From NCBI RefSeq assembly GCF_003018255.1, contig NZ_CP027440.1: a stretch of 64,000 nucleotides of DNA; one strand, written 5' to 3'. This stretch comes from Escherichia coli (GTDB taxonomy: Bacteria > Pseudomonadota > Gammaproteobacteria > Enterobacterales > Enterobacteriaceae). This document shows, one piece after another, positions 1,077-62,156 of the stretch. Within the stretch, counting starts at the first letter, position 1. The number at the start of each line of letters is the position of its first letter. The notes under the pieces were generated by a model that was given only the letters and a program-made list of their open reading frames with translations, had not been told where the DNA came from and did not search any database. The translations under genes were made by a program, and so were the position numbers.

Positions 1077-3434
<2,358 letters not shown>

Positions 3435-3438
3435 TTAG

Positions 3439-3690
<252 letters not shown>

Positions 3691-5012: not shown

Positions 5013-6173
5013 ATGACGCGTAAACAGGCCACCATCGCAGTGCGTAGCGGGTTAAATGACGACGAACAGTATGGTTGCGTTGTCCCTCCCATCCATCTTT
5101 CCAGTACCTATAACTTTACCGGATTTAATGAACCGCGCGCGCATGATTACTCGCGGCGCGGCAACCCAACGCGCGATGTGGTTCAGCGAGCGCTGGCAGA
5201 ACTGGAAGGCGGTGCTGGTGCAGTACTTACTAATACCGGCATGTCCGCGATTCACCTGGTAACGACCGTTTTTTTGAAACCTGGCGATCTGCTGGTTGCG
5301 CCGCACGACTGCTACGGCGGTAGCTATCGCCTGTTCGACAGCCTAGCGAAACGCGGTTGCTATCGCGTGTTGTTTGTTGATCAAAGCGATGAACAGGCAT
5401 TACGGGCAGCGCTGGCAGAAAAACCCAAACTGGTACTGGTAGAAAGCCCAAGTAATCCATTGTTACGCGTCGTGGATATTGCGAAAATCTGCCATCTGGC
5501 AAGGGAAGTCGGGGCGGTGAGCGTGGTGGATAACACCTTCTTAAGCCCGGCATTACAAAATCCGCTGGCATTAGGTGCCGATCTGGTGTTGCATTCATGT
5601 ACGAAATATCTGAACGGTCACTCAGACGTGGTGGCCGGCGTAGTGATTGCTAAAGACCCGGACGTTGTCACTGAACTTGCCTGGTGGGCAAACAATATTG
5701 GCGTGACGGGCGGCGCGTTTGACAGCTATCTGCTGCTGCGCGGGTTGCGAACGCTGGTGCCGCGTATGGAGCTGGCGCAGCGCAACGCGCAGGCGATTGT
5801 GAAATATCTGCAAACCCAGCCGTTGGTGAAAAAACTGTATCACCCGTCGCTGCCGGAAAATCAGGGGCATGAAATTGCCGCGCGCCAGCAAAAAGGCTTT
5901 GGCGCAATGTTGAGTTTTGAACTGGATGGCGATGAGCAGACGCTGCGTCGTTTCCTGGGCGGGTTGTCGTTGTTTACGCTGGCGGAATCATTAGGGGGAG
6001 TGGAAAGTTTAATCTCTCACGCCGCAACCATGACACATGCAGGCATGGCGCCAGAAGCGCGTGCTGCCGCCGGGATCTCCGAGACGCTGCTACGTATCTC
6101 CACCGGTATTGAAGATGGCGAAGATTTAATTGCCGACCTGGAAAATGGCTTCCGGGCTGCAAACAAGGGGTAA
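5013..6173 (+). CDS. metB: Cystathionine gamma-synthase
   Basis: Track ORF 4899..6173 trimmed to MTRKQATIAVRSGLNDDEQYG... (386 aa); PLP-enzyme family. Confidence 0.95.
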   Translation: MTRKQATIAVRSGLNDDEQYGCVVPPIHLSSTYNFTGFNEPRAHDYSRRGNPTRDVVQRALAELEGGAGAVLTNTGMSAIHLVTTVFLKPGDLLVAPHDCYGGSYRLFDSLAKRGCYRVLFVDQSDEQALRAALAEKPKLVLVESPSNPLLRVVDIAKICHLAREVGAVSVVDNTFLSPALQNPLALGADLVLHSCTKYLNGHSDVVAGVVIAKDPDVVTELAWWANNIGVTGGAFDSYLLLRGLRTLVPRMELAQRNAQAIVKYLQTQPLVKKLYHPSLPENQGHEIAARQQKGFGAMLSFELDGDEQTLRRFLGGLSLFTLAESLGGVESLISHAATMTHAGMAPEARAAAGISETLLRISTGIEDGEDLIADLENGFRAANKG

Positions 6174-23504: not shown

Positions 23505-26006
23505 TTACAGTTCCAGTTCATGTTGCAGCAGGCTGGCGATAGCGTCGGCAGAGGCGGCGTTAACCAGCGCGTTACGGAATTCTTCGTGCATGATGCGACG
23601 AGCGAGGCGCGAGAAAATGCGCATGTGCTGATCGCCCGCAGCATGTTTGTTCAGGGTTAACATAATGATGAATTGCGCTTCATCATCGCCCCAGCGCACC
23701 GGCGCTGCCAGACGCGCCACGCTGATGGTGGATTGCTCAATGTGTTCTGATTTGCTGTGGGGAATGGCAAAACTAAAGCCCAGACCGGTAGAGAAAACGG
23801 CCTCGCGCGCCCACAAGTCGGCTTCCAGTTTACGCGGATAGCGACAGCGGCCCGCCAGCAGCAGGTTATCGGTCATGCCTTTGAGCACTTCTTCTTTGCT
23901 GCGCCAGTCGCTTTCCAGTGTGATGCACTCGGCGGTGACCAGCGGTGCGTCTTGTTGGGTCATGCGGAATTGCGCCAGCAGGTGTTCCACTTCCAGCGAA
24001 GTACGGCAGGCCATTGCCTGGTTGAGCAACTTGCGGCACTCACGGCTATCAAGTTGCGCCATCCGCGCTTTCGCCGCCGGAATTGATGGTGCGCTCATGC
24101 TGAGTTCATCCAGCCCTAAACCGACCAGCAACGGCAGCACGGAACCTTTCGCTCCCAGTTCACCGCACAGACCAATCCATTTGCCCTGGCGATGCACCGC
24201 CTGTACGGCGTAATCGAGCGCCCGCAAGAATGCTGGATTCAGGCTGTTGTAGTGACGAGTCACCTTAGCGTTATCGCGATCCACTGCCAGTAGATATTGC
24301 GTCAGGTCATTACTACCAATACTAAAGAAATCAATCTCTTCGCAGCATTGATCGATGATGAACATCACCGACGGCACTTCCAGCATGATGCCGAGTGGAA
24401 TCTTCTCATCAAACGGAATGTGTTCGTTACGCAGTTGCTGTTTGGCTTCCGCCAGTTTTTCTTTCACCCATAAGATCTCTTCCATTGAGGAGATCATCGG
24501 GATCATGATTTTCAGGCTGCCGTGAGCAGAGGCGCGCAGGATCGACCGTAGTTGTGTGGTAAACAACGACGCGTATTCTTCATAAATACGCACCGCGCGA
24601 TAACCGAGGAACGGGTTTGCCTCTGCGGGAATATTCAGATAATCAACGGGTTTGTCACCGCCAATATCCATAGTGCGCACAATAATGCTGCGTCCGTTGG
24701 CGGACTCCAGCGCCTGACAAAAAATGTTGTACAGCTCGCTTTCGCCCGGTGCACTGGTGCGATCCATATAGAGCATTTCAGTGCGGAATAAACCAACGCC
24801 TTCCGCACCATTGCCGAATGCGGCCTGCGCTTCCACGGAGTGAGCGATGTTAGCGGCAATTTCAATGCGGATACCGTCAGCGGTACGGGCTTGTTGGGTC
24901 AGCCAGACACGCTGTTGCTCACGCAGGGCGTCCTGTACGCGGGCTTCTTGCTGATAATAACGGGCCACGGCTTCCCCTGGCTCAACCACAATCGCCCCTG
25001 CGTTGCCGTCGATATAAATCGTTTGATGCTGCCACGGAGTAAGGGCATCAATATCCACACCTACCAGCGTCGGAATGTTGAACGAACGGGCAAGGATCAC
25101 CGTATGTGAGGTGGTGCCGCCACTTTTCAGTAATAGACCTTTGAGGTGATTTTTATCCAGTTCGAGGAACTGGCTGGGGGTCAGTTCATCAGCCATACAA
25201 ATGGCGGGCTGCGTCAGTTTGCCCGGTGCCGGGAAGCGTTGCTCACCGTAGATTTGCTGGAGTAACTGGAAGCAGACGTCGCGTACGTCCAGGGCACGTT
25301 CTTGCAGGTAGCTGCTGCTGGAACGGGCGAACTCTTCGCAAAAGTGATTCGCACTGGCAACAATCGCTTCGGCGCAGCTTAATCCGGCGCTGACACCTGC
25401 CAGTAAATGTTCGCGCAGGGAAGTATCGCCAGCCAGGGATCGGTGAGCTTCCAGTATCGCGCTGGTAGCACCGTCGCTATCCAGCAGACGAAATTCAATG
25501 TTTTTCATCACCAGTGTCAGGCCGTTTTCCAGCGCGGATTGCTCGGCGTCAACGCCTTTGGCAGCAGGAAGATTACCCAGCGCATTGAGATCTAAAGAAG
25601 AGATCGGCGTCAGAATGCCGCCTGCACTACCACTGCACACGGTGCGAGCACGGATAATTTGCGGATTCAGATTGGTCAGTGAAACCGGCAGTGGTTCCAG
25701 TTCGTCAGATTTTACTTCCGCCAGCGGTGCGTCGCAGTGGGGGAATTCATCGCGCAGCCATTGGCTTAAACGCTGGTGCGCTTCCTGTTCGTCGGCCCCG
25801 GAAATCAGTAACTGGCAGTTATCGCCCACCAGCGTATCGGTGCCAATCAGCGCAAGGGCGCTTTTGGCGTTGCCCTTGCGGTCAGTGCGCAGGTTATGCC
25901 ACTCAATTTGTGATGAAAAAGTATTACACAGCGTTTCAACGTGGCTTGCCGGACGTGCATGTACGCCGTTAGGTAGCTCACAAATAAATTCCACAATCAG
26001 GGCCAT
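23505..26006 (-). CDS. ptsA: Multiphosphoryl transfer protein (Enzyme I-like / HPr-like / IIA-like fusion) of the fructose-like PTS
   Basis: 833-aa [29 protein letters not shown]... (HPr-like N-terminus), central PEP-utilising domain. Confidence 0.9.
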
Positions 26007-26314
26007 TGCCTCTCTCCCGGTACGGTTTTCTGTTTACAGGATAAGAGCGCACGGCAACGGCCTGCCATGTGACAAATCTGCCAAAAGCTGGACAAATGTA
26101 ATGTAACCGTCAATTTGCGACGCGTCTCACAAGACGCCGTTTTGCGGCATGCTTCCGGATCATCGCAAGTTATGAGGCGGATCGCATTTTTGTACTGATA
26201 TTACAAAAGTCCAGTAAATGGCCTTTTTATCCACTGTTTGCTCCGCCTGCGATTGCCTATTGTTTCCTCCATCAAAAATATGGACATGGGCTTTTGCAAG
26301 CCCGGGAGCAGCTT

Positions 26315-27394
26315 ATGAATGAGTTGGTGCAGATCCTGAAAAATACCCGTCAGCATTTAATGACGGGCGTTTCACACATGATTCCCTTCGTGGTATCGGG
26401 CGGTATTTTGCTGGCGGTTTCCGTCATGTTGTATGGCAAAGGCGCAGTGCCGGATGCCGTAGCCGATCCGAATCTGAAAAAACTGTTTGATATCGGCGTT
26501 GCGGGTTTGACGCTGATGGTGCCTTTCCTCGCCGCTTACATTGGTTACTCCATTGCAGAGCGTTCTGCGCTGGCTCCGTGCGCTATCGGTGCCTGGGTTG
26601 GTAACAGCTTTGGTGCGGGCTTCTTTGGTGCACTGATCGCCGGGATTATCGGCGGCATCGTGGTGCATTACCTGAAGAAAATTCCGGTGCATAAAGTTCT
26701 GCGCTCGGTGATGCCAATCTTCATCATTCCGATCGTCGGCACACTGATTACCGCAGGCATCATGATGTGGGGGCTGGGCGAGCCTGTGGGGGCATTGACC
26801 AACAGCCTGACTCAGTGGCTTCAGGGGATGCAGCAGGGCAGCATTGTTATGCTGGCGGTGATCATGGGCCTGATGCTGGCGTTCGATATGGGCGGTCCGG
26901 TTAACAAAGTGGCCTATGCCTTCATGCTGATTTGCGTTGCTCAGGGTGTTTATACCGTGGTGGCCATTGCTGCCGTGGGTATTTGTATTCCGCCGCTGGG
27001 GATGGGGCTGGCGACGCTGATTGGTCGTAAAAATTTCTCCGCAGAAGAGCGCGAAACCGGTAAAGCGGCGCTGGTGATGGGGTGCGTTGGGGTTACTGAA
27101 GGGGCGATTCCTTTCGCCGCTGCCGATCCGCTGCGTGTTATTCCTTCCATCATGGTCGGTTCAGTTTGTGGTGCAGTAACTGCGGCGCTGGTCGGTGCGC
27201 AGTGCTATGCAGGCTGGGGCGGTCTGATTGTGCTGCCGGTGGTTGAAGGCAAGCTGGGTTATATCGCAGCAGTAGCTGTCGGAGCAGTGGTGACGGCTGT
27301 TTGTGTGAACGTGCTGAAAAGTCTGGCGCGTAAAAATGGGTCTTCGACTGATGAAAAAGAAGACGACCTGGATTTGGATTTTGAAATTAATTAA
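26315..27394 (+). CDS. frwC: Fructose-like PTS permease IIC component
   Basis: Track ORF 26294..27394 trimmed to MNELVQILKNTRQHLMTGVSHMIPFVVSGG... (359 aa), polytopic membrane protein. Confidence 0.9.
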   Translation: MNELVQILKNTRQHLMTGVSHMIPFVVSGGILLAVSVMLYGKGAVPDAVADPNLKKLFDIGVAGLTLMVPFLAAYIGYSIAERSALAPCAIGAWVGNSFGAGFFGALIAGIIGGIVVHYLKKIPVHKVLRSVMPIFIIPIVGTLITAGIMMWGLGEPVGALTNSLTQWLQGMQQGSIVMLAVIMGLMLAFDMGGPVNKVAYAFMLICVAQGVYTVVAIAAVGICIPPLGMGLATLIGRKNFSAEERETGKAALVMGCVGVTEGAIPFAAADPLRVIPSIMVGSVCGAVTAALVGAQCYAGWGGLIVLPVVEGKLGYIAAVAVGAVVTAVCVNVLKSLARKNGSSTDEKEDDLDLDFEIN

Positions 27395-27408
27395 TTGAGG
27401 AACGAGCC

Positions 27409-27729
27409 ATGACGAAAATTATTGCAGTAACCGCGTGTCCATCTGGTGTTGCCCATACCTATATGGCGGCAGAGGCGCTGGAAAGTGCCGCGAAAGCGAA
27501 AGGCTGGGAAGTGAAAGTAGAAACCCAGGGCTCGATTGGTCTGGAAAACGAACTGACTGCGGAAGACGTGGCGAGCGCCGATATGGTGATCCTGACCAAA
27601 GATATCGGCATCAAGTTTGAAGAGCGTTTTGCTGGCAAGACCATCGTGCGCGTCAACATCAGCGACGCGGTAAAACGCGCTGATGCCATTATGAGCAAAA
27701 TTGAAGCTCACCTGGCACAAACCGCTTAA
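27409..27729 (+). CDS. frwB: Fructose-like PTS IIB component
   Basis: 106-aa ORF MTKIIAVTACPSGVAHTYMAAEALE... (IIB Cys motif). Confidence 0.9.
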   Translation: MTKIIAVTACPSGVAHTYMAAEALESAAKAKGWEVKVETQGSIGLENELTAEDVASADMVILTKDIGIKFEERFAGKTIVRVNISDAVKRADAIMSKIEAHLAQTA

Positions 27730-27779
27730 GTTCTTATCCCGCCCGTAAGGGCGGGTTCGCTTTCCCACAGGAGTTCCTC

Positions 27780-30077
27780 ATGACGAATCGTATCTCTCGC
27801 CTCAAAACTGCACTGTTTGCCAATACCCGTGAAATCTCGCTGGAGCGTGCGCTGCTTTATACCGCCAGCCATCGGCAAACCGAAGGCGAACCGGTGATAT
27901 TGCGCCGGGCGAAAGCAACAGCGTATATCCTTGAACATGTTGAAATTTCGATTCGTGATGAAGAACTGATTGCCGGTAACCGCACCGTAAAACCGCGCGC
28001 CGGGATTATGTCGCCGGAAATGGACCCTTACTGGCTGCTGAAAGAGCTGGATCAATTCCCGACGCGTCCGCAGGACCGCTTTGCTATCAGCGAAGAAGAT
28101 AAACGTATCTACCGTGAAGAGTTGTTCCCGTACTGGGAAAAACGTTCGATGAAAGATTTCATTAACGGGCAGATGACGGATGAAGTAAAAGCCGCGACCA
28201 GCACGCAGATTTTCAGCATCAACCAGACGGATAAAGGCCAGGGGCACATTATTATTGATTACCCGCGCCTGCTGAATCACGGGCTGGGTGAGCTGGTAGC
28301 GCAGATGCAGCAACATTGTCAGCAACAGCCGGAGAATCACTTTTATCAGGCAGCGCTGTTACTGCTCGAAGCCTCGCAGAAACACATTTTGCGTTACGCC
28401 GAACTGGCGGAAACGATGGCGGCAAGCTGCACTGATGCCCAGCGTCGCGAAGAACTGCTGACTATTGCGGAGATCTCCCGCCATAACGCCGAACATAAGC
28501 CGCAGACGTTCTGGCAGGCGTGCCAGTTATTCTGGTACATGAACATCATTCTGCAATACGAATCCAACGCCAGTTCACTATCGTTGGGGCGCTTCGACCA
28601 GTATATGTTGCCGTTCTATCAGGCATCATTAACCCAGGGCGAAGATCCGGCGTTCCTGAAAGAACTGCTCGAATCTTTATGGGTGAAATGCAACGACATC
28701 GTGCTGTTGCGCTCCACCAGTAGCGCGCGTTATTTCGCCGGTTTCCCGACCGGCTATACCGCACTGCTCGGCGGGTTAACCGAGAACGGACGTAGCGCGG
28801 TGAACGTGCTTTCGTTCCTTTGCCTTGACGCTTATCAAAGCGTGCAATTACCGCAACCGAACCTCGGCGTGCGCACTAACGCCTTGATCGACACGCCGTT
28901 CCTGATGAAAACCGCAGAAACCATTCGCCTCGGCACCGGTATTCCGCAAATCTTTAACGATGAAGTGGTGGTGCCAGCGTTCCTCAACCGTGGCGTTTCG
29001 CTGGAAGATGCACGCGACTATTCCGTAGTGGGCTGTGTGGAATTATCTATTCCCGGCAGAACCTACGGCTTGCATGACATCGCGATGTTTAATCTGCTGA
29101 AAGTGATGGAAATCTGCCTGCATGAAAATGAAGGCAATGCTGCGCTGACTTATGAAGGTTTACTGGAGCAGATCCGCGCCAAGATCAGCCACTACATCAC
29201 CCTGATGGTTGAGGGCAGCAATATTTGCGATATCGGTCACCGTGACTGGGCACCTGTACCGCTGCTCTCATCGTTTATCAGCGATTGTCTGGAAAAAGGC
29301 AGCGATATTACCGATGGCGGCGCGCGTTATAACTTCTCCGGCGTACAGGGGATCGGTATCGCCAACCTGAGCGATTCTCTCCATGCGTTGAAAGGGATGG
29401 TTTTTGAGCAACAGCGTTTAAGTTTTGACGAATTGCTGTCGGTATTAAAAGCCAACTTCGCAACGCCAGAAGGCGAAAAAGTCCGTGCTCGCTTAATTAA
29501 CCGCTTCGAGAAATACGGTAACGATATCGACGAGGTGGATAACATCAGCGCCGAACTGTTACGCCACTACTGCAAAGAAGTGGAAAAATACCAGAACCCG
29601 CGCAGCGGCTACTTCACGCCGGGATCGTATACCGTTTCTGCTCACGTCCCGTTGGGATCGGTGGTTGGCGCGACGCCAGACGGTCGTTTTGCCGGGGAAC
29701 AACTGGCAGACGGCGGCTTGTCACCCATGCTGGGCCAGGACGCACAAGGGCCAACGGCGGTACTGAAGTCAGTCAGTAAGCTCGATAATACGCTGCTGTC
29801 TAACGGTACGTTGCTGAACGTGAAATTCACTCCGGCGACTCTGGAAGGTGAAGCGGGATTACGCAAACTGGCCGACTTCTTACGGGCGTTTACCCAGCTT
29901 AAGTTGCAGCATATTCAGTTTAACGTGGTGAACGCCGACACGTTGCGGGAAGCGCAACAGCGCCCACAAGATTATGCCGGGCTGGTGGTGCGCGTTGCCG
30001 GATACAGCGCCTTCTTTGTCGAATTGTCGAAGGAGATCCAGGATGACATCATCCGCCGGACAGCGCATCAGCTGTAA
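27780..30077 (+). CDS. pflD: Glycyl-radical enzyme, PFL-like (formate acetyltransferase 2 homolog), substrate unknown
   Basis: 765-aa ORF; glycyl-radical motif VVRVAGYSAFF near the C-terminus. Confidence 0.9.
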   Translation: MTNRISRLKTALFANTREISLERALLYTASHRQTEGEPVILRRAKATAYILEHVEISIRDEELIAGNRTVKPRAGIMSPEMDPYWLLKELDQFPTRPQDRFAISEEDKRIYREELFPYWEKRSMKDFINGQMTDEVKAATSTQIFSINQTDKGQGHIIIDYPRLLNHGLGELVAQMQQHCQQQPENHFYQAALLLLEASQKHILRYAELAETMAASCTDAQRREELLTIAEISRHNAEHKPQTFWQACQLFWYMNIILQYESNASSLSLGRFDQYMLPFYQASLTQGEDPAFLKELLESLWVKCNDIVLLRSTSSARYFAGFPTGYTALLGGLTENGRSAVNVLSFLCLDAYQSVQLPQPNLGVRTNALIDTPFLMKTAETIRLGTGIPQIFNDEVVVPAFLNRGVSLEDARDYSVVGCVELSIPGRTYGLHDIAMFNLLKVMEICLHENEGNAALTYEGLLEQIRAKISHYITLMVEGSNICDIGHRDWAPVPLLSSFISDCLEKGSDITDGGARYNFSGVQGIGIANLSDSLHALKGMVFEQQRLSFDELLSVLKANFATPEGEKVRARLINRFEKYGNDIDEVDNISAELLRHYCKEVEKYQNPRSGYFTPGSYTVSAHVPLGSVVGATPDGRFAGEQLADGGLSPMLGQDAQGPTAVLKSVSKLDNTLLSNGTLLNVKFTPATLEGEAGLRKLADFLRAFTQLKLQHIQFNVVNADTLREAQQRPQDYAGLVVRVAGYSAFFVELSKEIQDDIIRRTAHQL

Positions 30078-40350: not shown

Positions 40351-41724
40351 ATGGCACTTTGGGGCGGGCGTTTTACCCAGGCAGCAGATCAACGGTTCAA
40401 ACAATTCAACGACTCACTGCGCTTTGATTACCGTCTGGCGGAGCAGGATATTGTTGGCTCTGTGGCCTGGTCCAAAGCCCTGGTAACGGTCGGCGTGTTA
40501 ACCGCAGAAGAGCAGGCGCAACTGGAAGAGGCGCTGAACGTGCTGCTGGAAGATGTTCGCGCCAGGCCACAACAAATCCTTGAAAGCGACGCCGAAGATA
40601 TCCATAGCTGGGTGGAAAGCAAACTGATCGACAAAGTGGGTCAGTTAGGCAAAAAACTGCATACCGGGCGTAGCCGTAATGATCAGGTAGCAACTGACCT
40701 GAAACTGTGGTGCAAAGATACCGTTAGCGAGTTGCTGACGGCTAACCGGCAGTTACAATCCGCTCTGGTCGAGACCGCGCAGAACAATCAGGACGCGGTG
40801 ATGCCGGGTTACACTCACCTGCAACGCGCCCAGCCGGTGACGTTCGCTCACTGGTGCCTGGCCTACGTTGAGATGCTGGCGCGTGATGAAAGCCGTTTGC
40901 AGGACGCGCTTAAGCGTCTGGATGTCAGCCCGCTAGGCTGTGGCGCACTGGCAGGAACGGCCTATGAAATCGACCGTGAACAGTTAGCAGGCTGGCTGGG
41001 CTTTGCTTCGGCGACCCGTAACAGTCTCGACAGCGTTTCTGACCGTGACCATGTGCTGGAACTGCTTTCTGCTGCCGCTATCGGCATGGTGCATCTGTCG
41101 CGTTTTGCTGAAGATCTGATTTTCTTTAACACCGGCGAAGCGGGGTTTGTGGAGCTTTCTGACCGTGTGACTTCCGGTTCATCATTAATGCCGCAGAAGA
41201 AAAACCCGGATGCGCTGGAGCTGATTCGCGGTAAATGCGGTCGGGTGCAGGGGGCGTTAACCGGCATGATGATGACGCTGAAAGGTTTGCCGCTGGCTTA
41301 CAACAAAGATATGCAGGAAGACAAAGAAGGTCTGTTCGACGCGCTCGATACCTGGCTGGACTGCCTGCATATGGCGGCGCTGGTGCTGGACGGCATTCAG
41401 GTGAAACGTCCGCGTTGCCAGGAAGCGGCGCAGCAGGGTTACGCCAACGCTACTGAACTGGCGGATTATCTGGTGGCGAAAGGCGTACCGTTCCGCGAGG
41501 CGCACCATATTGTGGGTGAAGCTGTGGTGGAAGCCATTCGTCAGGGCAAAGCGTTGGAAGATCTGCCGCTCAGTGAGTTGCAGAAATTCAGCCAGGTGAT
41601 TGGCGAAGATGTCTATCCGATTCTGTCGCTGCAATCGTGCCTCGACAAGCGTGCTGCAAAAGGCGGCGTCTCACCGCAGCAGGTGGCGCAGGCGATTGCT
41701 TTTGCGCAAGCTCGGTTAGAGTAG
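40351..41724 (+). CDS. argH: Argininosuccinate lyase
   Basis: 457-aa [37 protein letters not shown]... Confidence 0.95.
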
Positions 41725-41764
41725 TTTGTTTATATTGCTCCCCTGAAAATGGGGAGCTTACCAC

Positions 41765-41818
41765 GCCTACAAAGTGCGACACTTCGTAGGCGGATAAGGC
41801 GTTTACGCCGCATCAGGC
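41765..41818. repeat. REP element downstream of argH
   Basis: gcctacaaagtgcgacacttcgtaggcggataaggcgtttacgccgcatcaggc; preceded by hairpin gctcccctgaaaatggggagc (41737-41757). Confidence 0.55.
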
Positions 41819-42221
41819 AGAAATTTGTCAGTATTCTGGTGACCTTAAATTTAACGCCCAACCAGAACCATTATTTGTCACATTCCTTTTTATTCTTGCG
41901 TCTTCTTTACCTTCACTCTCCCCATAAAAATTATATTTTCAATACATCAGCCAATACATACTTTAATTAATTGAATATAATTCATTTCTATTGCTGTGTT
42001 CATTTTTAATGATTAATGGAGTTTGTTATGTGATTATTTAACGTGTTGTTTTAACGATGATAGCTAATTATTCAGGTGGTTTTTGAGGGTGTTTTTTCTC
42101 CTCGGTAGAAATTTTTATTTTTAATGTGATCATGGTTGAATAATCGCTCTTTCTCTCTTGTATGGTAGTAGGCGCAAAATTAAGTTTGAAACGTCTATTT
42201 ACAACACAGGAGATTGCAATA

Positions 42222-43436
42222 ATGAAAATTATTGCTGCAGATGTTTTTGTTACTTGCCCAGGGCGTAATTTCGTTACGCTTAAAATAACCACTGCAAGCG
42301 GACTTTGTGGATTAGGAGATGCCACGTTAAATGGTCGCGAATTGTCGGTCGCTTCTTATCTGAAAGATCATCTTTGTCCACAACTAATTGGCCGCGATGC
42401 CAGCCGTATCGAAGATATCTGGCAATTCTTTTATAAAGGTGCTTACTGGCGACGTGGCCCCGTCACGATGTCAGCCATTTCTGCCATTGATATGGCGTTG
42501 TGGGATATCAAAGCAAAAGCGGCAAATATGCCATTGTATCAACTGCTTGGTGGTGCTTCTCGTGAAGGCGTTATGGTTTATTGCCACACCACCGGGCGTA
42601 CGATTGATGAAGTCCTTGAAGACTATGCAAAGCACCAGCAGATGGGCTTTAAGGCGATTCGTGTGCAGTGTGGTGTACCGGGTATGCAAACCACCTATGG
42701 TCTGGCGAAGGGCAAAGGACTGGCGTATGAACCAGCAACCAAAGGCCTGTGGCCAGAAGAGCAGTTGTGGTCTTCAGAAAAGTATCTCGATTTTACGCCG
42801 AAGTTATTTGAAGCGGTGCGTAATAAGTTCGGTTTTAACGAACATCTGTTGCATGACATGCACCATCGCCTGACCCCCATCGAAGCGGCGCGCTTTGGGA
42901 AGAGCATTGAAGATTACCGCCTGTTCTGGATGGAAGATCCGACGCCTGCCGAGAATCAGGAATGTTTTCGTCTGATTCGTCAGCATACCGTGACGCCGAT
43001 TGCGGTCGGTGAAGTGTTTAACAGTATCTGGGACTGCAAGCAGTTAATCGAAGAGCAGCTGATTGACTATATTCGCACGACGATTACCCATGCAGGCGGC
43101 ATTACCGGGATGCGACGGATTGCCGATTTTGCATCGCTTTATCAGGTACGTACCGGTTCGCATGGCCCTTCAGATTTATCGCCTGTTTGCCATGCGGCGG
43201 CGCTGCATTTTGACCTCTGGGTGCCAAACTTTGGCGTTCAGGAGTACATGGGCTATTCCGAACAAATGCTTGAAGTCTTCCCGCATAGCTGGCGCTTCGA
43301 TGAAGGTTATATGCACCCAGGCGATGAACCGGGGCTGGGTATTTCTTTCGATGAGAAACTGGCGGCGAAATATCCGTATGACCCGGCGTATCTCCCCGTC
43401 GCACGACTGGAAGATGGCACATTGTGGAACTGGTAA
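42222..43436 (+). CDS. Enolase-superfamily D-mannonate dehydratase-like protein (RspA/ManD paralog)
   Basis: Track ORF 42162..43436 trimmed to ATG 42222 after AGGAGA SD ([24 protein letters not shown]..., 404 aa); motifs [15 protein letters not shown] and FWMEDP; near-colinear with recalled K-12 RspA. Confidence 0.85.
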
Positions 43437-43502
43437 TAGCGGTTCGCTTAATTATTTTCTGAATATTCATCAAATCGATTAATTCCGCTCAAGGAGCTAA
43501 AA

Positions 43503-44786
43503 ATGGACGTTGATGTGTCAACCAGTGTTGCGGGTAATAAACCGCAACGGATTCGTCGTATTCAGACAGTGACCCTGGTTTTATTATTTATGGCGGGGAT
43601 CGTTAATTTTCTCGACCGTTCGTCATTGAGCGTGGCAGGTGAAGCAATTCGTGGCGAGTTAGGATTATCCGCTACCGAGTTTGGTGTTTTGCTTTCTGCA
43701 TTTTCTCTGTCTTATGGTTTTTCACAACTTCCTTCCGGTATTTTGCTAGACCGCTTTGGCCCACGAATAGTGTTAGGCGCAGGCTTAATATTCTGGTCAT
43801 TAATGCAGGCATTAACAGGAATGGTTAATTCTTTTAGCCACTTTATTTTAATGCGTATCGGTCTGGGTATTGGCGAAGCGCCATTTATGCCTGCGGGAGT
43901 AAAGTCGATCACCGACTGGTATGCGCAAAAAGAACGCGGCACGGCGCTGGGGATTTTTAACTCATCTACCGTTATCGGTCAGGCTATCGCGCCTCCTGCT
44001 CTTGTATTGATGCAACTGGCATGGGGCTGGCGGACGATGTTTGTCATCATCGGCGTAGCAGGGATTCTGGTTGGGATCTGTTGGTACGCGTGGTATCGCA
44101 ACCGGGCGCAGTTTGTCCTGACCGAGGAAGAACGGACATATCTCTCCGCGCCGGTTAAACCGCGTCCACAGTTACAATTTAGCGAGTGGCTGGCGCTGTT
44201 TAAGCATCGGACAACCTGGGGGATGATTTTAGGTTTCTCTGGCGTCAATTATACCGGTTGGCTCTACATCGCGTGGTTACCCGGTTATTTGCAGGCCGAA
44301 CAAGGTTTCAGTCTGGCGAAAACCGGTTGGGTGGCGGCAATTCCTTTCCTCGCGGCGGCGGTCGGGATGTGGGTTAACGGTATTGTTGTCGATCGGCTGG
44401 CGAAAAAAGGCTATGACCTGGCGAAGACGCGTAAAACGGCGATTGTCTGCGGTTTGATGATGTCGGCATTAGGCACGTTGCTGGTCGTGCAATCTTCCTC
44501 GCCAGCCCAGGCGGTAGCGTTTATCTCAATGGCGCTGTTCTGCGTGCATTTCGCGGGAACATCTGCATGGGGGCTGGTGCAGGTGATGGTGTCAGAAACA
44601 AAAGTGGCTTCCATCGCCGGGATTCAAAACTTTGGCAGTTTTGTTTTTGCTTCCTTTGCTCCGATCGTAACCGGTTGGGTCGTGGATACCACACACTCGT
44701 TTAATCTGGCGCTGGTTATCGCGGCCTGTGTGACGTTCACCGGGGCGCTGTGTTACTTCTTTATTGTCAAAGATCGGATTGAGTAA
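43503..44786 (+). CDS. MFS transporter, anion:cation symporter (ACS) type, probable hexuronate/aldonate permease
   Basis: 427-aa ORF after AAGGAG SD; 12-TM profile; resembles ExuT/GudP/DgoT-type acid-sugar permeases. Confidence 0.8.
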   Translation: MDVDVSTSVAGNKPQRIRRIQTVTLVLLFMAGIVNFLDRSSLSVAGEAIRGELGLSATEFGVLLSAFSLSYGFSQLPSGILLDRFGPRIVLGAGLIFWSLMQALTGMVNSFSHFILMRIGLGIGEAPFMPAGVKSITDWYAQKERGTALGIFNSSTVIGQAIAPPALVLMQLAWGWRTMFVIIGVAGILVGICWYAWYRNRAQFVLTEEERTYLSAPVKPRPQLQFSEWLALFKHRTTWGMILGFSGVNYTGWLYIAWLPGYLQAEQGFSLAKTGWVAAIPFLAAAVGMWVNGIVVDRLAKKGYDLAKTRKTAIVCGLMMSALGTLLVVQSSSPAQAVAFISMALFCVHFAGTSAWGLVQVMVSETKVASIAGIQNFGSFVFASFAPIVTGWVVDTTHSFNLALVIAACVTFTGALCYFFIVKDRIE

Positions 44787-44825
44787 CCGTTACTATCAGG
44801 CTCTCTTGCTGTGGGCCTGTAGAAT

Positions 44826-44942
44826 AAAAAAAAGCGGATCCTGGAGATCCGCAAAAGTTCACGTTGGCTTTAGTTATTCGAGTTGAGAAACTCTCGAAAC
44901 GGGCAGTGACTTCAAGGGTTAAAAGAGGTGCCGCTCCGTTTC
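44826..44942 (-). ncRNA. oxyS: OxyS small regulatory RNA
   Basis: Reverse complement reads GAAACGGAGCGGCACCTCTTTTAACCCTTGAAGTCA...GCGGATCTCCAGGATCCGCTTTTTTTT, matching recalled OxyS with its 3' terminator hairpin; divergent from oxyR. Confidence 0.85.
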
Positions 44943-47338: not shown

Positions 47339-47672
47339 GGTAGGGCTTACCTGTTCTTATACATAAAAGCAACAGAATGGTAACATTTTATCGCGGGTAA
47401 GCCAATTGATCCCCGTCATTTATCTGGCTATATCGTGAGCGGCCTTTGCTTTGTCTGTTTCTTACTTTTGACCTGAACGTTTTATTGGATTTTTATCGAC
47501 GATACTCTCCGTTTAAGCGGCAGGTTTCCGTTGTACGTAAAAGAACCGGCCAAAGAATTGCAGTAAATATGTTTTATTGCGTTACCGTTCATTCACAATA
47601 CTGGAGCAATCCAGTATGTTCATTCTCTGGTATAGTGCCAGCAGTACTTTTGGCAAGGATTCAGACATCGTG

Positions 47673-49819: not shown

Positions 49820-49949
49820 GATGTATCCTGAAAAATTAAAGTACGCGGCGATTGTAGGGATTGCTCATCAGATGTCCAGATCTTGATGAATTCCTATTTG
49901 TGAGCTACGTCTGGACAGTAACTTGTTACAACCTGTAGCATCCACTTGC

Positions 49950-50160
49950 CGGTCCTGTGAGTTAATAGGGAATCCAGTGCGAATCTGGAGCTGACGCGCA
50001 GCGGTAAGGAAAGGTGCGATGATTGCGTTATGCGGACACTGCCATCCGGTGGGAAGTCATCATCTCTTAGTATCTTAGATACCCCTCCAAGCCCGAAGAC
50101 CTGCCGGCTAACGTCGCATCTGGTTCTCATCATCGCGTAATATTGATGAAACCTGCGGCA
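49950..50160 (+). ncRNA. Cobalamin (AdoCbl) riboswitch in the btuB 5' leader
   Basis: Long untranslated leader containing a B12-box-like element (ccaagcccgaagacctgccgg, ~50088-50107); boundaries approximate. Confidence 0.7.
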
Positions 50161-53245: not shown

Positions 53246-54787
<1,542 letters not shown>

Positions 54788-54872
54788 CCTTAAAGAAGCG
54801 TACTTTGCAGTGCTCACACAGATTGTCTGATAGAAAGTGAAAAGCAAGGCGTCTTGCGAAGCAGACTGATAC

Positions 54873-54948
54873 GTCCCCTTCGTCTAGAGGCCCAGGACAC
54901 CGCCCTTTCACGGCGGTAACAGGGGTTCGAATCCCCTAGGGGACGCCA
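54873..54948 (+). tRNA. gltT: tRNA-Glu (UUC) in the 16S-23S spacer
   Basis: GTCCCCTTCGTCTAGAGGCCCAGGACACCGCCCTTTCACGGCGGTAACAGGGGTTCGAATCCCCTAGGGGACGCCA. Confidence 0.95.
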
Positions 54949-55132
54949 CTTGCTGGTTTGTGAGTGAAAGTCACCTGCCTTAGTATCTCAAAACTCATCT
55001 TCGGGTGATGTTTGAGATATTTGCTCTTTAAAAATCTGGATCAAGCTGAAAATTGAAACACTGAACAACGAAAGTTGTTCGTGAGTCTCTCAAATTTTCG
55101 CAACTCTGAAGTGAAACATCTTCGGGTTGTGA

Positions 55133-58036
<2,904 letters not shown>

Positions 58037-58129
58037 ACAACGCCGAAGATGTTTTGGCGGATGAGAGAAGATTTTCAGCCTGATACAGATTAAATTAACC
58101 GGCGACAAGCGGGTTAATAAAACAGAATT

Positions 58130-58249
58130 TGCCTGGCGGCCGTAGCGCGGTGGCCCCACCTGACCCCATGCCGAACTCAGAAGTGAAACGCCGTAGCGCC
58201 GATGGTAGTGTGGGGTCTCCCCATGCGAGAGTAGGGAACTGCCAGGCAT
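58130..58249 (+). rRNA. rrfB: 5S ribosomal RNA
   Basis: TGCCTGGCGGCCGTAGCGCGGTGGCCCCACCTGACCCCATGCCGAACTCAG...GGGAACTGCCAGGCAT; 120 nt. Confidence 0.95.
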
Positions 58250-61714: not shown

Positions 61715-61790
<76 letters not shown>

Positions 61791-61798
61791 TCAAGTCC

Positions 61799-61883
<85 letters not shown>

Positions 61884-61999
61884 ATTTCGGCCACGCGATG
61901 GCGTAGCCCGAGACGATAAGTTCGCTTACCGGCTCGAATAAAGAGAGCTTCTCTCGATATTCAGTGCAGAATGAAAATCAGGTAGCCGAGTTCCAGGAT

Positions 62000-62074
<75 letters not shown>

Positions 62075-62080
62075 AGATGT

Positions 62081-62156
62081 GCTGATATAGCTCAGTTGGT
62101 AGAGCGCACCCTTGGTAAGGGTGAGGTCGGCAGTTCGAATCTGCCTATCAGCACCA
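62081..62156 (+). tRNA. thrT: tRNA-Thr (GGU)
   Basis: GCTGATATAGCTCAGTTGGTAGAGCGCACCCTTGGTAAGGGTGAGGTCGGCAGTTCGAATCTGCCTATCAGCACCA. Confidence 0.95.

Follow-up and report, generated by a model that had tools for sequence, protein, structure and literature searches.

The argH-oxyS cassette and its two genes

The stretch of Escherichia coli DNA analyzed here (64,000 nucleotides; NCBI RefSeq assembly GCF_003018255.1, contig NZ_CP027440.1), hereafter the window, carries between argH and the small RNA gene oxyS a two-gene cassette that encodes a dehydratase of the ManD subgroup of the enolase superfamily and an ACS-family permease of the major facilitator superfamily (MFS). We consider it reasonably likely that the cassette is an old, vertically inherited accessory operon with an rsp-type promoter, i.e., a relocated copy of the dehydratase and permease module of the rsp locus, with the working proposed below. 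A preliminary description of this DNA had stated that argH and oxyS are adjacent in K-12 and that about 3 kb intervene here, and comparison of the K-12 MG1655 locus with the window (blastn) bears this out. The homology breaks at 41723, inside the argH stop codon, and restarts at 44826, in the A-run of the oxyS terminator; the 55 bp that K-12 has at this place contain its own argH terminator hairpin with a T-run. The right edge given in the preliminary description (44825) is exact, whereas its left edge (41820) lies about 95 bp inside the true one and leaves out a hairpin and a repeat pair. According to the list of open reading frames (ORFs) and Rfam matches, the order of genes in the window is argE (minus strand), argC, argB, argH (40351-41724), the two plus-strand ORFs of the cassette, oxyS (minus strand), oxyR, sthA (minus strand) and fabR. 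The cassette itself comprises the following features.

41725-44825, no strand assigned: whole cassette segment, about 3101 bp, versus 55 bp in K-12
42208-42212, plus strand: Shine-Dalgarno sequence of manD, AGGAG
42222-43436, plus strand: manD, ManD-subgroup enolase-superfamily dehydratase of 404 amino acids, RspA paralogue (NF043051, Pfam, alignment)
43493-43497, plus strand: Shine-Dalgarno sequence of the permease gene, AGGAG
43503-44786, plus strand: ACS-family (DgoT/SLC17-like) MFS permease of 427 amino acids (TIGR00893, DgoT 6E9N, PF07690)

The longest ORF that contains manD starts at 42162 (424 amino acids). We rejected this start in favor of the ATG at 42222, which is common to RspA homologues and the Prokaryotic Genome Annotation Pipeline (PGAP), because the homologues all begin with MKI(V/I), an AGGAG precedes this ATG, and the extra 20 codons overlap a conserved promoter. 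The protein has the Pfam domains MR_MLE_N (residues 14-110, E = 1.5e-33) and MR_MLE_C (residues 140-379, E = 1.3e-45), and scores 731.5 bits with the NCBIfam equivalog NF043051 for ManD, above the cutoff of 550. It aligns over its full length and without gaps to RspA of strain CFT073 (PDB 4IL2, 899 bits), which likewise has 404 amino acids and the same catalytic and ligand residues, and also end to end without gaps to a Pectobacterium enzyme (PDB 4E4F). These two, which we take to be low-efficiency members of the subgroup, are the nearest solved relatives, and the classical ManDs are far more distant: the ManD of Novosphingobium aromaticivorans (2QJJ) has the same subgroup and fold and matches over the full length (E = 2e-182), however with 610 bits versus 899 for 4IL2. 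High-efficiency ManDs of this kind are reportedly the sole mannonate dehydratases of their organisms, whereas E. coli also has UxuA. The colinearity with RspA suggested in the preliminary description thus holds.

Enzymes of the ManD subgroup have three Mg2+-binding carboxylates that end barrel strands 3, 4 and 5, a Tyr159-Arg147 dyad, and a His acid catalyst two residues past the first ligand. In the cassette enzyme, the metal-ligand carboxylates D212 (HLLHDMHH), E238 (FWMEDP) and E264 (AVGEVF) are kept and are identical in the 4IL2 alignment, the catalytic residues R147, Y159 and H214 are present, and so are the contact residues N37, H122, R285, H314 and E341. The catalytic residues are the same as those of the N. 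aromaticivorans enzyme, whose metal ligands are Asp210, Glu236 and Glu262; the numbering of the 404-residue protein is offset from this by two. The cassette enzyme would be expected to dehydrate D-mannonate. Neither of the findings that would have refuted the preliminary description was made: K-12 lacks the two genes, and the dehydratase keeps its catalytic residues.

The cassette enzyme shares 91.6% of its residues with the RspA encoded on the chromosome of a different E. coli strain. An RspA orthologue lies, as a single copy, downstream of ynfA and upstream of rspB; manD lies between argH and oxyS, with the permease gene and not rspB next to it. Among the strains examined, rspA was found in cassette-positive and cassette-negative ones alike. 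We regard manD as a paralogue of rspA, and not as rspA itself, because a separate rspA is present in the order ynfA-rspA-rspB, the synonymous sites between manD and E. coli rspA are saturated (synonymous divergence, dS, of about 2), and the cassette proteins form a clade of their own. In a neighbor-joining tree rooted on Pectobacterium, this clade is long-branched, has 100% bootstrap support and is not sister to E. coli RspA.

The permease belongs to Pfam family PF07690. Its best NCBIfam match is TIGR00893 (D-galactonate transporter subfamily), with 276.6 bits, below the cutoff of 395, and its best solved relative is the SLC17-related D-galactonate:H+ symporter DgoT (6E9N/6E9O; for PDB 6E9N, E = 1.9e-57 with residues 13-424 aligned), a full-length although distant homologue. 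The DgoT residues D46/R47, R126 and E133 are matched by D38/R39, R118 and E125 of the permease; we take them to include the carboxylate-binding Arg and two proton-coupling acidic residues. Because of the homology to DgoT and the conservation of the substrate-binding Arg and the proton-coupling residues, the protein is predicted to be a proton-coupled organic-anion symporter of the ACS type, and the family assignment in the preliminary description was correct. In contrast to DgoT, the permease is linked to a mannonate dehydratase and not to a galactonate dehydratase. The gap of 66 bp between manD and the permease gene contains just a weak hairpin, which makes a single operon likely; the two genes are probably co-transcribed.

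Linkage to the rsp locus and an rspA-type promoter

No regulator, dehydrogenase or kinase gene is present inside 41725-44825, as the preliminary description had noted, and its proposal that the cassette plugs into existing pathways through partners encoded elsewhere is upheld as well. The identity of these partners can be sharpened. A scan for the permease in one genome per bacterial species (GTDB) yielded 21 loci, the gene content of which was determined by tblastn with the window proteins and K-12 RspA, RspB, YdfJ, YdfI, RspR, YdfG and YnfA, and with NCBIfam. The permease (81-92% identical) directly adjoins an rspA orthologue in 13 of the 15 non-Escherichia Enterobacteriaceae loci, and in Atlantibacter subterranea it is located about 4.8 kb from rspA, in the same cluster. 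The usual order is ynfA-[MFS, rspA, either order]-rspB-ydfJ-ydfI-rspR-ydfG. The rspA-adjacent permeases of Enterobacter, Raoultella, Lelliottia, Siccibacter, Pluralibacter, a Klebsiella metagenome-assembled genome and Citrobacter sp. 18056 are 82-89% identical to that of the cassette. The order found in the cassette, rspA followed by the MFS gene, is that of Lelliottia, Siccibacter and Enterobacter sp. kpr-6.

The likeness between the cassette and the rsp/ydf locus of Lelliottia nimipressuralis, Siccibacter turicensis, Raoultella ornithinolytica and Enterobacter spp. extends to the adjacency of the pair, to the promoter motifs and to the proteins, the permease being 82-89% and the dehydratase 91-94% identical to those of the cassette. 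The difference is that in Escherichia and in Citrobacter sp. R56 the pair stands alone at the argH-oxyS site, without rspB, ydfJ, ydfI and rspR. Variant loci in A. subterranea and Enterobacter sp. kpr-6 contain ydfI, rspA, the MFS gene and a GPH-family transporter, and that of Atlantibacter also contains uxaC (glucuronate isomerase). The constant core is thus a fructuronate reductase (the NCBIfam family of YdfI), a mannonate dehydratase and this permease, with D-fructuronate/D-mannonate chemistry in common. The E. coli rsp locus proper, ynfA-rspA-rspB, has no permease, and in K-12 ydfJ is truncated, beside the Qin prophage. Because the permease adjoins rspA in other genera, the argH-oxyS cassette can be viewed as the dehydratase and permease module of the rsp locus standing alone. 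It should be noted that a record titled Chryseobacterium sp. 18061 (contig NODE_3) contains an rsp locus of enterobacterial type, whose RspA shares 94.8% identity with that of E. coli and groups with that of Citrobacter sp. 18056 (99% bootstrap), so that the record looks mislabelled or contaminated.

We compared 15 upstream regions, taken from the cassettes, from E. coli rspA and from rsp loci in 8 further genomes, and aligned them on a shared motif. The upstream features of the cassette are as follows.

41830-42120, plus strand: AT-rich non-coding region, about 32% GC, upstream of the promoter (composition, conservation)
42020-42070, plus strand: invariant block of about 50 bp, GATTAATGGAGTTTGTTATGTGATTATTTAACGTGTTGTTTTAACGATGAT, common to the window, Nissle 1917, Escherichia sp. 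E1V33 and E. whittamii
42125-42131, plus strand: TGTGATC box, similar to a CRP half-site, 33 nt (start to start) upstream of the -35 element
42154-42163, plus strand: position of the RspR box, TCTCTTGTAT, versus ATACTTGTAT at E. coli rspA
42157-42171, plus strand: conserved 15-mer CTTGTATGGTAGTAG, which occurs once in the 64-kb window
42158-42163, plus strand: predicted -35 element TTGTAT, within the 15-mer, in register with rspA
42181-42186, plus strand: predicted -10 element TAAGTT, 17 nt after the -35 element (aligned hexamers TAGATT/TAAGTT/TAAATT)
about 42190-42193, plus strand: predicted transcription start, in register with the mapped K-12 rspA start

All 15 promoters share an unchanged 11-nt core, TTGTATGGTAG, and a TGTGA(T/C)C box that starts 33 nt upstream of it in the same register; a -10-type hexamer follows 17-18 nt later. 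The same full 15-mer stands in the four Escherichia cassette promoters, in that of the Citrobacter sp. R56 cassette, at E. coli rspA and in five of the remaining rsp-locus promoters, even though synonymous divergence between these loci is saturated. In K-12, RspR (YdfH) represses rspA and protects 31 bp from DNase I, centered on ATACnnGTAT, and the rspA transcript starts at a C located 30 bp upstream of the ATG (Shimada and co-workers, PMC8249747). At E. coli rspA, the box ATACTTGTAT is centered at -34.5, and TTGTAT is the -35 element. The right half of the cassette box, GTAT, is intact and the left half is degenerate; TTGTAT and GGTAGTAG are identical to the footprinted K-12 site. The cassette promoter therefore resembles that of the RspR-repressed rspAB operon in its TGTGATC box, in a -35 element within the RspR-box region and in a similar -10 element. 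Because the promoter layout is that of rspA, repression by RspR in trans is probable, a reasonable inference from the comparison; together with the adjacency of the permease and rspA in other genera, this layout suggests RspB, YdfI and RspR as partners in trans, instead of or besides the Uxu enzymes. CRP perhaps assists at the cassette promoter. A full CRP site was considered and is unsupported, as conservation is limited to the TGTGA half, with a variable second half.

The promoter cores of the window and of E. whittamii share 96% identity. The AT-rich upstream region (alignment columns 131-430) is 84% identical in this comparison, versus about 71-77% of synonymous sites unchanged (proportion of differing synonymous sites, pS, 0.23-0.29), and is therefore more conserved than expected of neutral sequence. 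The block of about 50 bp within it is partly recognizable in Citrobacter sp. R56 (AACGTGTTATTTTAATGAT); nothing equivalent is present in the rsp loci. This block holds a second TGTGAT box, and a 13-nt near-repeat occurs at 41999-42011 and 42114-42126, the latter copy being just ahead of the promoter TGTGATC box. We discarded the idea of an RNA element hidden in the 500 bp upstream, as a permissive Rfam search produced only a sub-threshold match to an RNA derived from repetitive extragenic palindromic (REP) elements and a chance match to a CRISPR repeat.

Distribution, age and selection

The segment is present (at least 80% of its length) in 1860 of 5426 complete E. coli genomes (34%), and 3553 have the K-12-type empty junction; the argH-oxyS site is a nearly clean two-allele polymorphism in E. 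coli. These counts answer the pangenome check called for in the preliminary description. Carriers include CFT073, Nissle 1917, S88, 'FDA strain Seattle 1946' (ATCC 25922) and an O127:H6 strain, and the cassette is missing from K-12, E. coli C and O157:H7. We considered and dropped the idea of a cassette specific to phylogroups B2, D and F, since the carriers include B2 strains (we take S88, ATCC 25922/'Seattle 1946' and O127:H6 to be such) along with strains that we assume to belong to other phylogroups. The permease gene falls into two sequence classes, 553 genomes having one at least 99% identical to that of the window and 1316 having one with 95-99% identity. RefSeq/PGAP names the genes 'manD: D-mannonate dehydratase ManD' and 'MFS transporter', with manD in all annotated cassette genomes examined, so that both genes are already catalogued; the cassette is an ordinary accessory metabolic operon, neither rare nor new. 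The ManD protein is found under the accession WP_000691039 or WP_000690928. What is new here is modest, namely the tie of the argH-oxyS cassette to the rsp/RspR system through permease linkage and promoter layout, and the data on its age and selection.

The age of the cassette was assessed through dS and the nonsynonymous divergence (dN), calculated by the Nei-Gojobori method, with argC, argB, argH, oxyR and sthA as flanking genes. Between the window and E. whittamii, dS is 0.37 for manD and 0.28 for the permease gene, versus 0.25-0.37 for the flanking genes, and the cassette dN/dS is 0.012-0.026. In the comparison with Escherichia sp. E1V33, the corresponding values are 0.17 and 0.31, versus 0.19-0.32 for the flanking genes, with cassette dN/dS of 0.010-0.026. 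Overall, manD has dN/dS of 0.012-0.046, and the permease gene has 0.010-0.026 versus E. whittamii and E1V33. Strong purifying selection thus acts on both cassette genes, and their divergence has kept pace with that of the flanking core genes.

The closest non-Escherichia permease, at 92%, is that of Citrobacter sp. R56, which has at the argH-oxyS site the promoter, followed by a manD with an internal deletion and by a permease gene that is intact. About 1 kb is deleted from this manD, leaving an in-frame stub of 64 codons made of the N-terminal 27 residues and the last 30 or so (positions 5693-5885 of locus L019), and the permease has a dN of 0.053 at saturated dS. The preliminary description had spoken of an insertion, which is probably the wrong polarity. 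The integrase, transposase and tRNA/att-type targets that mark mobile DNA were not found among the ORFs of the segment, no flanking direct or inverted repeats were found at its boundaries, and the GC content of the cassette genes (0.45-0.55) is as in the adjacent genes. In gene content, repeats and coding composition, the cassette does not resemble a mobile genomic island, and a mobile-element origin was rejected because mobility genes and boundary repeats are absent. Because dS matches that of the flanks, dN/dS is 0.01-0.05, mobility genes are absent and Citrobacter sp. R56 has the same site, we regard the cassette as old and selected. On the simplest reading, the module was moved or duplicated to argH-oxyS once, long ago, before the diversification of Escherichia, and was afterwards lost in some lineages; the empty site of the K-12 type is probably one such loss.

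A recent horizontal insertion, by which some E. coli lineages received a small genomic islet between argH and oxyS, would account for the polymorphism within the species (1860 genomes with the cassette and 3553 without) and for the AT-rich 400 bp (about 32% GC) upstream. It would also fit two further observations: only three representatives of other Escherichia species in the GTDB scan carry the cassette, and the cassette ManD shows no greater identity with E. coli RspA (91.6%) than with its RspA counterparts in other genera (91-94%). We nevertheless find a recent arrival quite unlikely, given that the lack of integrase, transposase, tRNA and repeats and the ordinary coding GC content are accompanied by dS values that indicate co-divergence with the flanking core genes, and that Citrobacter sp. 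R56 has the same cassette and promoter at the same site. In addition, the cassette permease is 82-89% identical to those of other genera, i.e., within the range of 81-96% that these show among themselves. The rarity among representatives of other Escherichia species leaves room for spread of an old cassette by homologous recombination.

The strength of purifying selection also bears on the possibility that the cassette is an evolutionary relic, in which a redundant weak dehydratase and an orphan permease, without a current physiological role, have survived by chance and are gradually degenerating. Signs of redundancy and decay exist: UxuA and RspA are available to E. coli in any case, the cassette is missing from two thirds of E. 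coli, RspA-clade low-efficiency ManDs are said to have no assignable physiological role, manD is internally deleted in Citrobacter sp. R56, 69 of 1869 permease-carrying E. coli genomes have less than 80% of the permease gene (MS6198 having an in-frame deletion of 276 bp), and one strain (HCM-28C-2) has an IS1 upstream of manD. Decay is, however, difficult to reconcile with dN/dS of 0.01-0.05 for both genes at divergences up to a dS of about 0.37, with the promoter core conserved at 96% against about 71-77% of unchanged synonymous sites, with retention of at least 80% of the permease gene in 1800 of the 1869 genomes, and with the intact Citrobacter sp. R56 permease (dN of 0.053 despite saturated dS). 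We therefore consider a relic unlikely. The intact permease beside a deleted manD in Citrobacter sp. R56 suggests that the transporter is the more valuable half of the cassette. The MS6198 permease gene (1008 versus 1284 bp; positions 2501-3508 of locus L029) is still annotated as an MFS transporter.

Proposed working, alternatives and flanking features

Our preferred reading, that of an old operon derived from the rsp module, would work as follows. The DgoT-like, proton-coupled permease would import a six-carbon acid sugar, either D-mannonate or one of the compounds convertible to it, L-gulonate, D-fructuronate or D-glucuronate. Where needed, the conversion would be carried out by enzymes encoded elsewhere, i.e., RspB (L-gulonate to D-fructuronate) and YdfI or UxuB (D-fructuronate to D-mannonate). 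ManD would then convert D-mannonate to 2-keto-3-deoxy-D-gluconate (KDG), and KdgK and Eda would carry KDG into central metabolism. Transcription would be repressed in trans by RspR, perhaps with the aid of CRP. The activity of RspB on L-gulonate is reportedly of this type. L-gulonate and L-idonate, named in the preliminary description, are plausible candidate substrates. The sequence of steps from L-gulonate through D-fructuronate and D-mannonate to KDG is documented in Haemophilus influenzae (PMC5788505), and the Uxu/Kdg steps have been reviewed (PMC6353982). The dehydration chemistry and the KdgK/Eda route are the same in the UxuA/UxuB/ExuT system and the H. influenzae pathway (PMC6353982, PMC5788505); UxuA, however, belongs to a protein family unrelated to ManD, and the H. 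influenzae pathway uses a TRAP transporter where the cassette has an MFS permease.

Several points weigh against this proposal. UxuA already handles D-mannonate in E. coli, so that the cassette dehydratase looks redundant. RspA of CFT073 is reportedly a low-efficiency ManD, and the L-gulonate pathway of that strain is said to be only 'cryptic'; CFT073 has the cassette, which argues against L-gulonate as a growth substrate taken up by this permease. The TIGR00893 score below the cutoff means that the substrate is not readable from homology. With respect to regulation, the left half of the RspR box is degenerate in the cassettes (TCTC in Escherichia and AATC in Citrobacter sp. R56, versus ATAC), and RspR binding may therefore be weak or absent. 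A generic sigma-70 promoter scan missed the rsp-type promoter, the placement of which comes from comparative register only. Finally, in the open literature, including a search with the CFT073 locus tags beside argH (argH being c4919), we found no papers on this gene pair. In real rsp loci, the permease-first promoters have a degenerate left half, xTTC, and the rspA-first promoters have a perfect palindrome.

The divergence of the dehydratase should be considered here as well. The cassette clade of ManD has ten clade-specific substitutions, two of which, Q156 and L161, lie on either side of the catalytic Tyr159 within the lid loop of the active site, and specificity could therefore differ from that of RspA, which is a further point against the proposed working. 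The cassette protein is 91-94% identical to RspA orthologues, and E. coli RspA is 93-95% identical to those same orthologues; the respective dN values to RspA of other genera are 0.040-0.052 and 0.031-0.039, i.e., about 30% higher for the cassette. Along with the long branch in the tree, the loss of the left half of the RspR box and the presumed variation of ManD-subgroup members in their preference for D-mannonate or D-gluconate, these data could indicate a neofunctionalized pair that acts on another acid sugar (e.g., D-gluconate, an L-idonate-derived compound or another aldonate) independently of the rsp genes. We think this improbable, because the known substrate- and metal-binding residues are all unchanged, the ManD equivalog cutoff is passed, the promoter keeps the rsp layout, and in many genera permeases of this lineage accompany genuine rspA genes. 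On balance we retain the rsp-derived operon as our reading, and note that the cassette differs from E. coli rspA in site, in its presence in 34% of genomes, in the degenerate left RspR half, in the ten substitutions and in saturated dS.

The rsp genes are named for a starvation phenotype, and to our knowledge no physiological substrate has been established for them. The cassette suggests that a dedicated acid-sugar permease belongs to the rsp system. K-12 has probably lost both rsp-system transporters (ydfJ is truncated and the permease is absent), and a third of E. coli keep a strongly conserved copy behind an rspA-type promoter. Identification of the permease substrate could reveal that of RspA, RspB, YdfI and RspR and account for the cryptic look of the pathway. 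The published genomic SELEX for RspR used K-12, i.e., a strain without the cassette, and 'single-target' regulators defined in K-12 may have more targets in other strains.

The borders of the cassette have the following features.

41737-41757, plus strand: hairpin GCTCCCC-TGAAAAT-GGGGAGC, directly 3' of the argH stop codon, read from the sequence, without a T-run
41765-41818, no strand assigned: pair of palindromic repeats of the REP/bacterial interspersed mosaic element (BIME) type, GCCTAC...GTAGGC, GGATAAGGCGTTTACGCCGCATCAGGC
44833-44942, minus strand: oxyS, the right neighbor, outside the cassette (Rfam RF00035, 139.5 bits), converging on the permease gene
44834-44852, minus strand: oxyS terminator hairpin, called on the minus strand only

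The end of the permease gene and the 3' end of the convergent oxyS are 46 bp apart (window 44787-44852). Read in the plus direction, the oxyS terminator hairpin is followed by AAAAGTT, without a U-tract. No plus-strand intrinsic terminator was called after the permease gene within 44787-44852.

Permease read-through antisense to oxyS is conceivable. This leads to a more speculative extension of the rsp reading, to which we assign a low likelihood: the cassette would be the missing uptake arm of the 'cryptic' RspA/RspB/YdfI pathway, RspR would be a two-target regulator, and the permease would make an aldonate (L-gulonate, D-mannonate) usable, a niche-specific nutrient trait in carriers that include extraintestinal pathogenic E. 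coli and probiotic B2 strains. Induction could in addition cause antisense read-through that damps OxyS, since no intrinsic terminator was called for the operon, which faces oxyS head-on. If true, this would link sugar-acid availability to the peroxide-stress small RNA OxyS.

At the left border, the hairpin at 41737-41757 is also present in Nissle 1917, Escherichia sp. E1V33 and E. whittamii, and is possibly a 3' structure of argH. The REP pair has a sub-threshold Rfam match to the REP-derived naRNA4 (27.6 bits versus a gathering score of 59.5). The number of REP copies differs among Escherichia species, with an extra unit in Escherichia sp. E1V33 and E. whittamii. E. coli HCM-28C-2 has an IS1A in the AT-rich region upstream of the manD promoter, at about window position 41945 (positions 546-1243 of locus L028); it is otherwise 100% identical to the window across the cassette segment, and no mobile element other than its IS1 was seen.

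A second two-gene presence/absence difference is located 2.5 kb away, in the sthA-fabR spacer (window 47339-47576). CFT073 and Nissle 1917 have an M20 aminoacylase gene between sthA and fabR, and CFT073 also has a citrate:H+ symporter gene (whole CFT073 spacer, positions 25568-28525 of locus L025); loci of cryptic Escherichia have about 3 kb of additional DNA in this spacer. The window pairs the 'full' argH-oxyS allele with the 'empty' sthA-fabR allele, sthA and fabR being adjacent as in K-12. Other Rfam features of the window are routine, with nothing out of the ordinary: an L31 ribosomal-protein leader (3419-3471), a btuB cobalamin riboswitch (49933-50122), a complete rrn operon with tRNA and StyR-44 (53246-58247), and four tRNA matches (61715-62153) that correspond to the tRNA-Thr/Tyr/Gly/Thr cluster upstream of tuf in CFT073.

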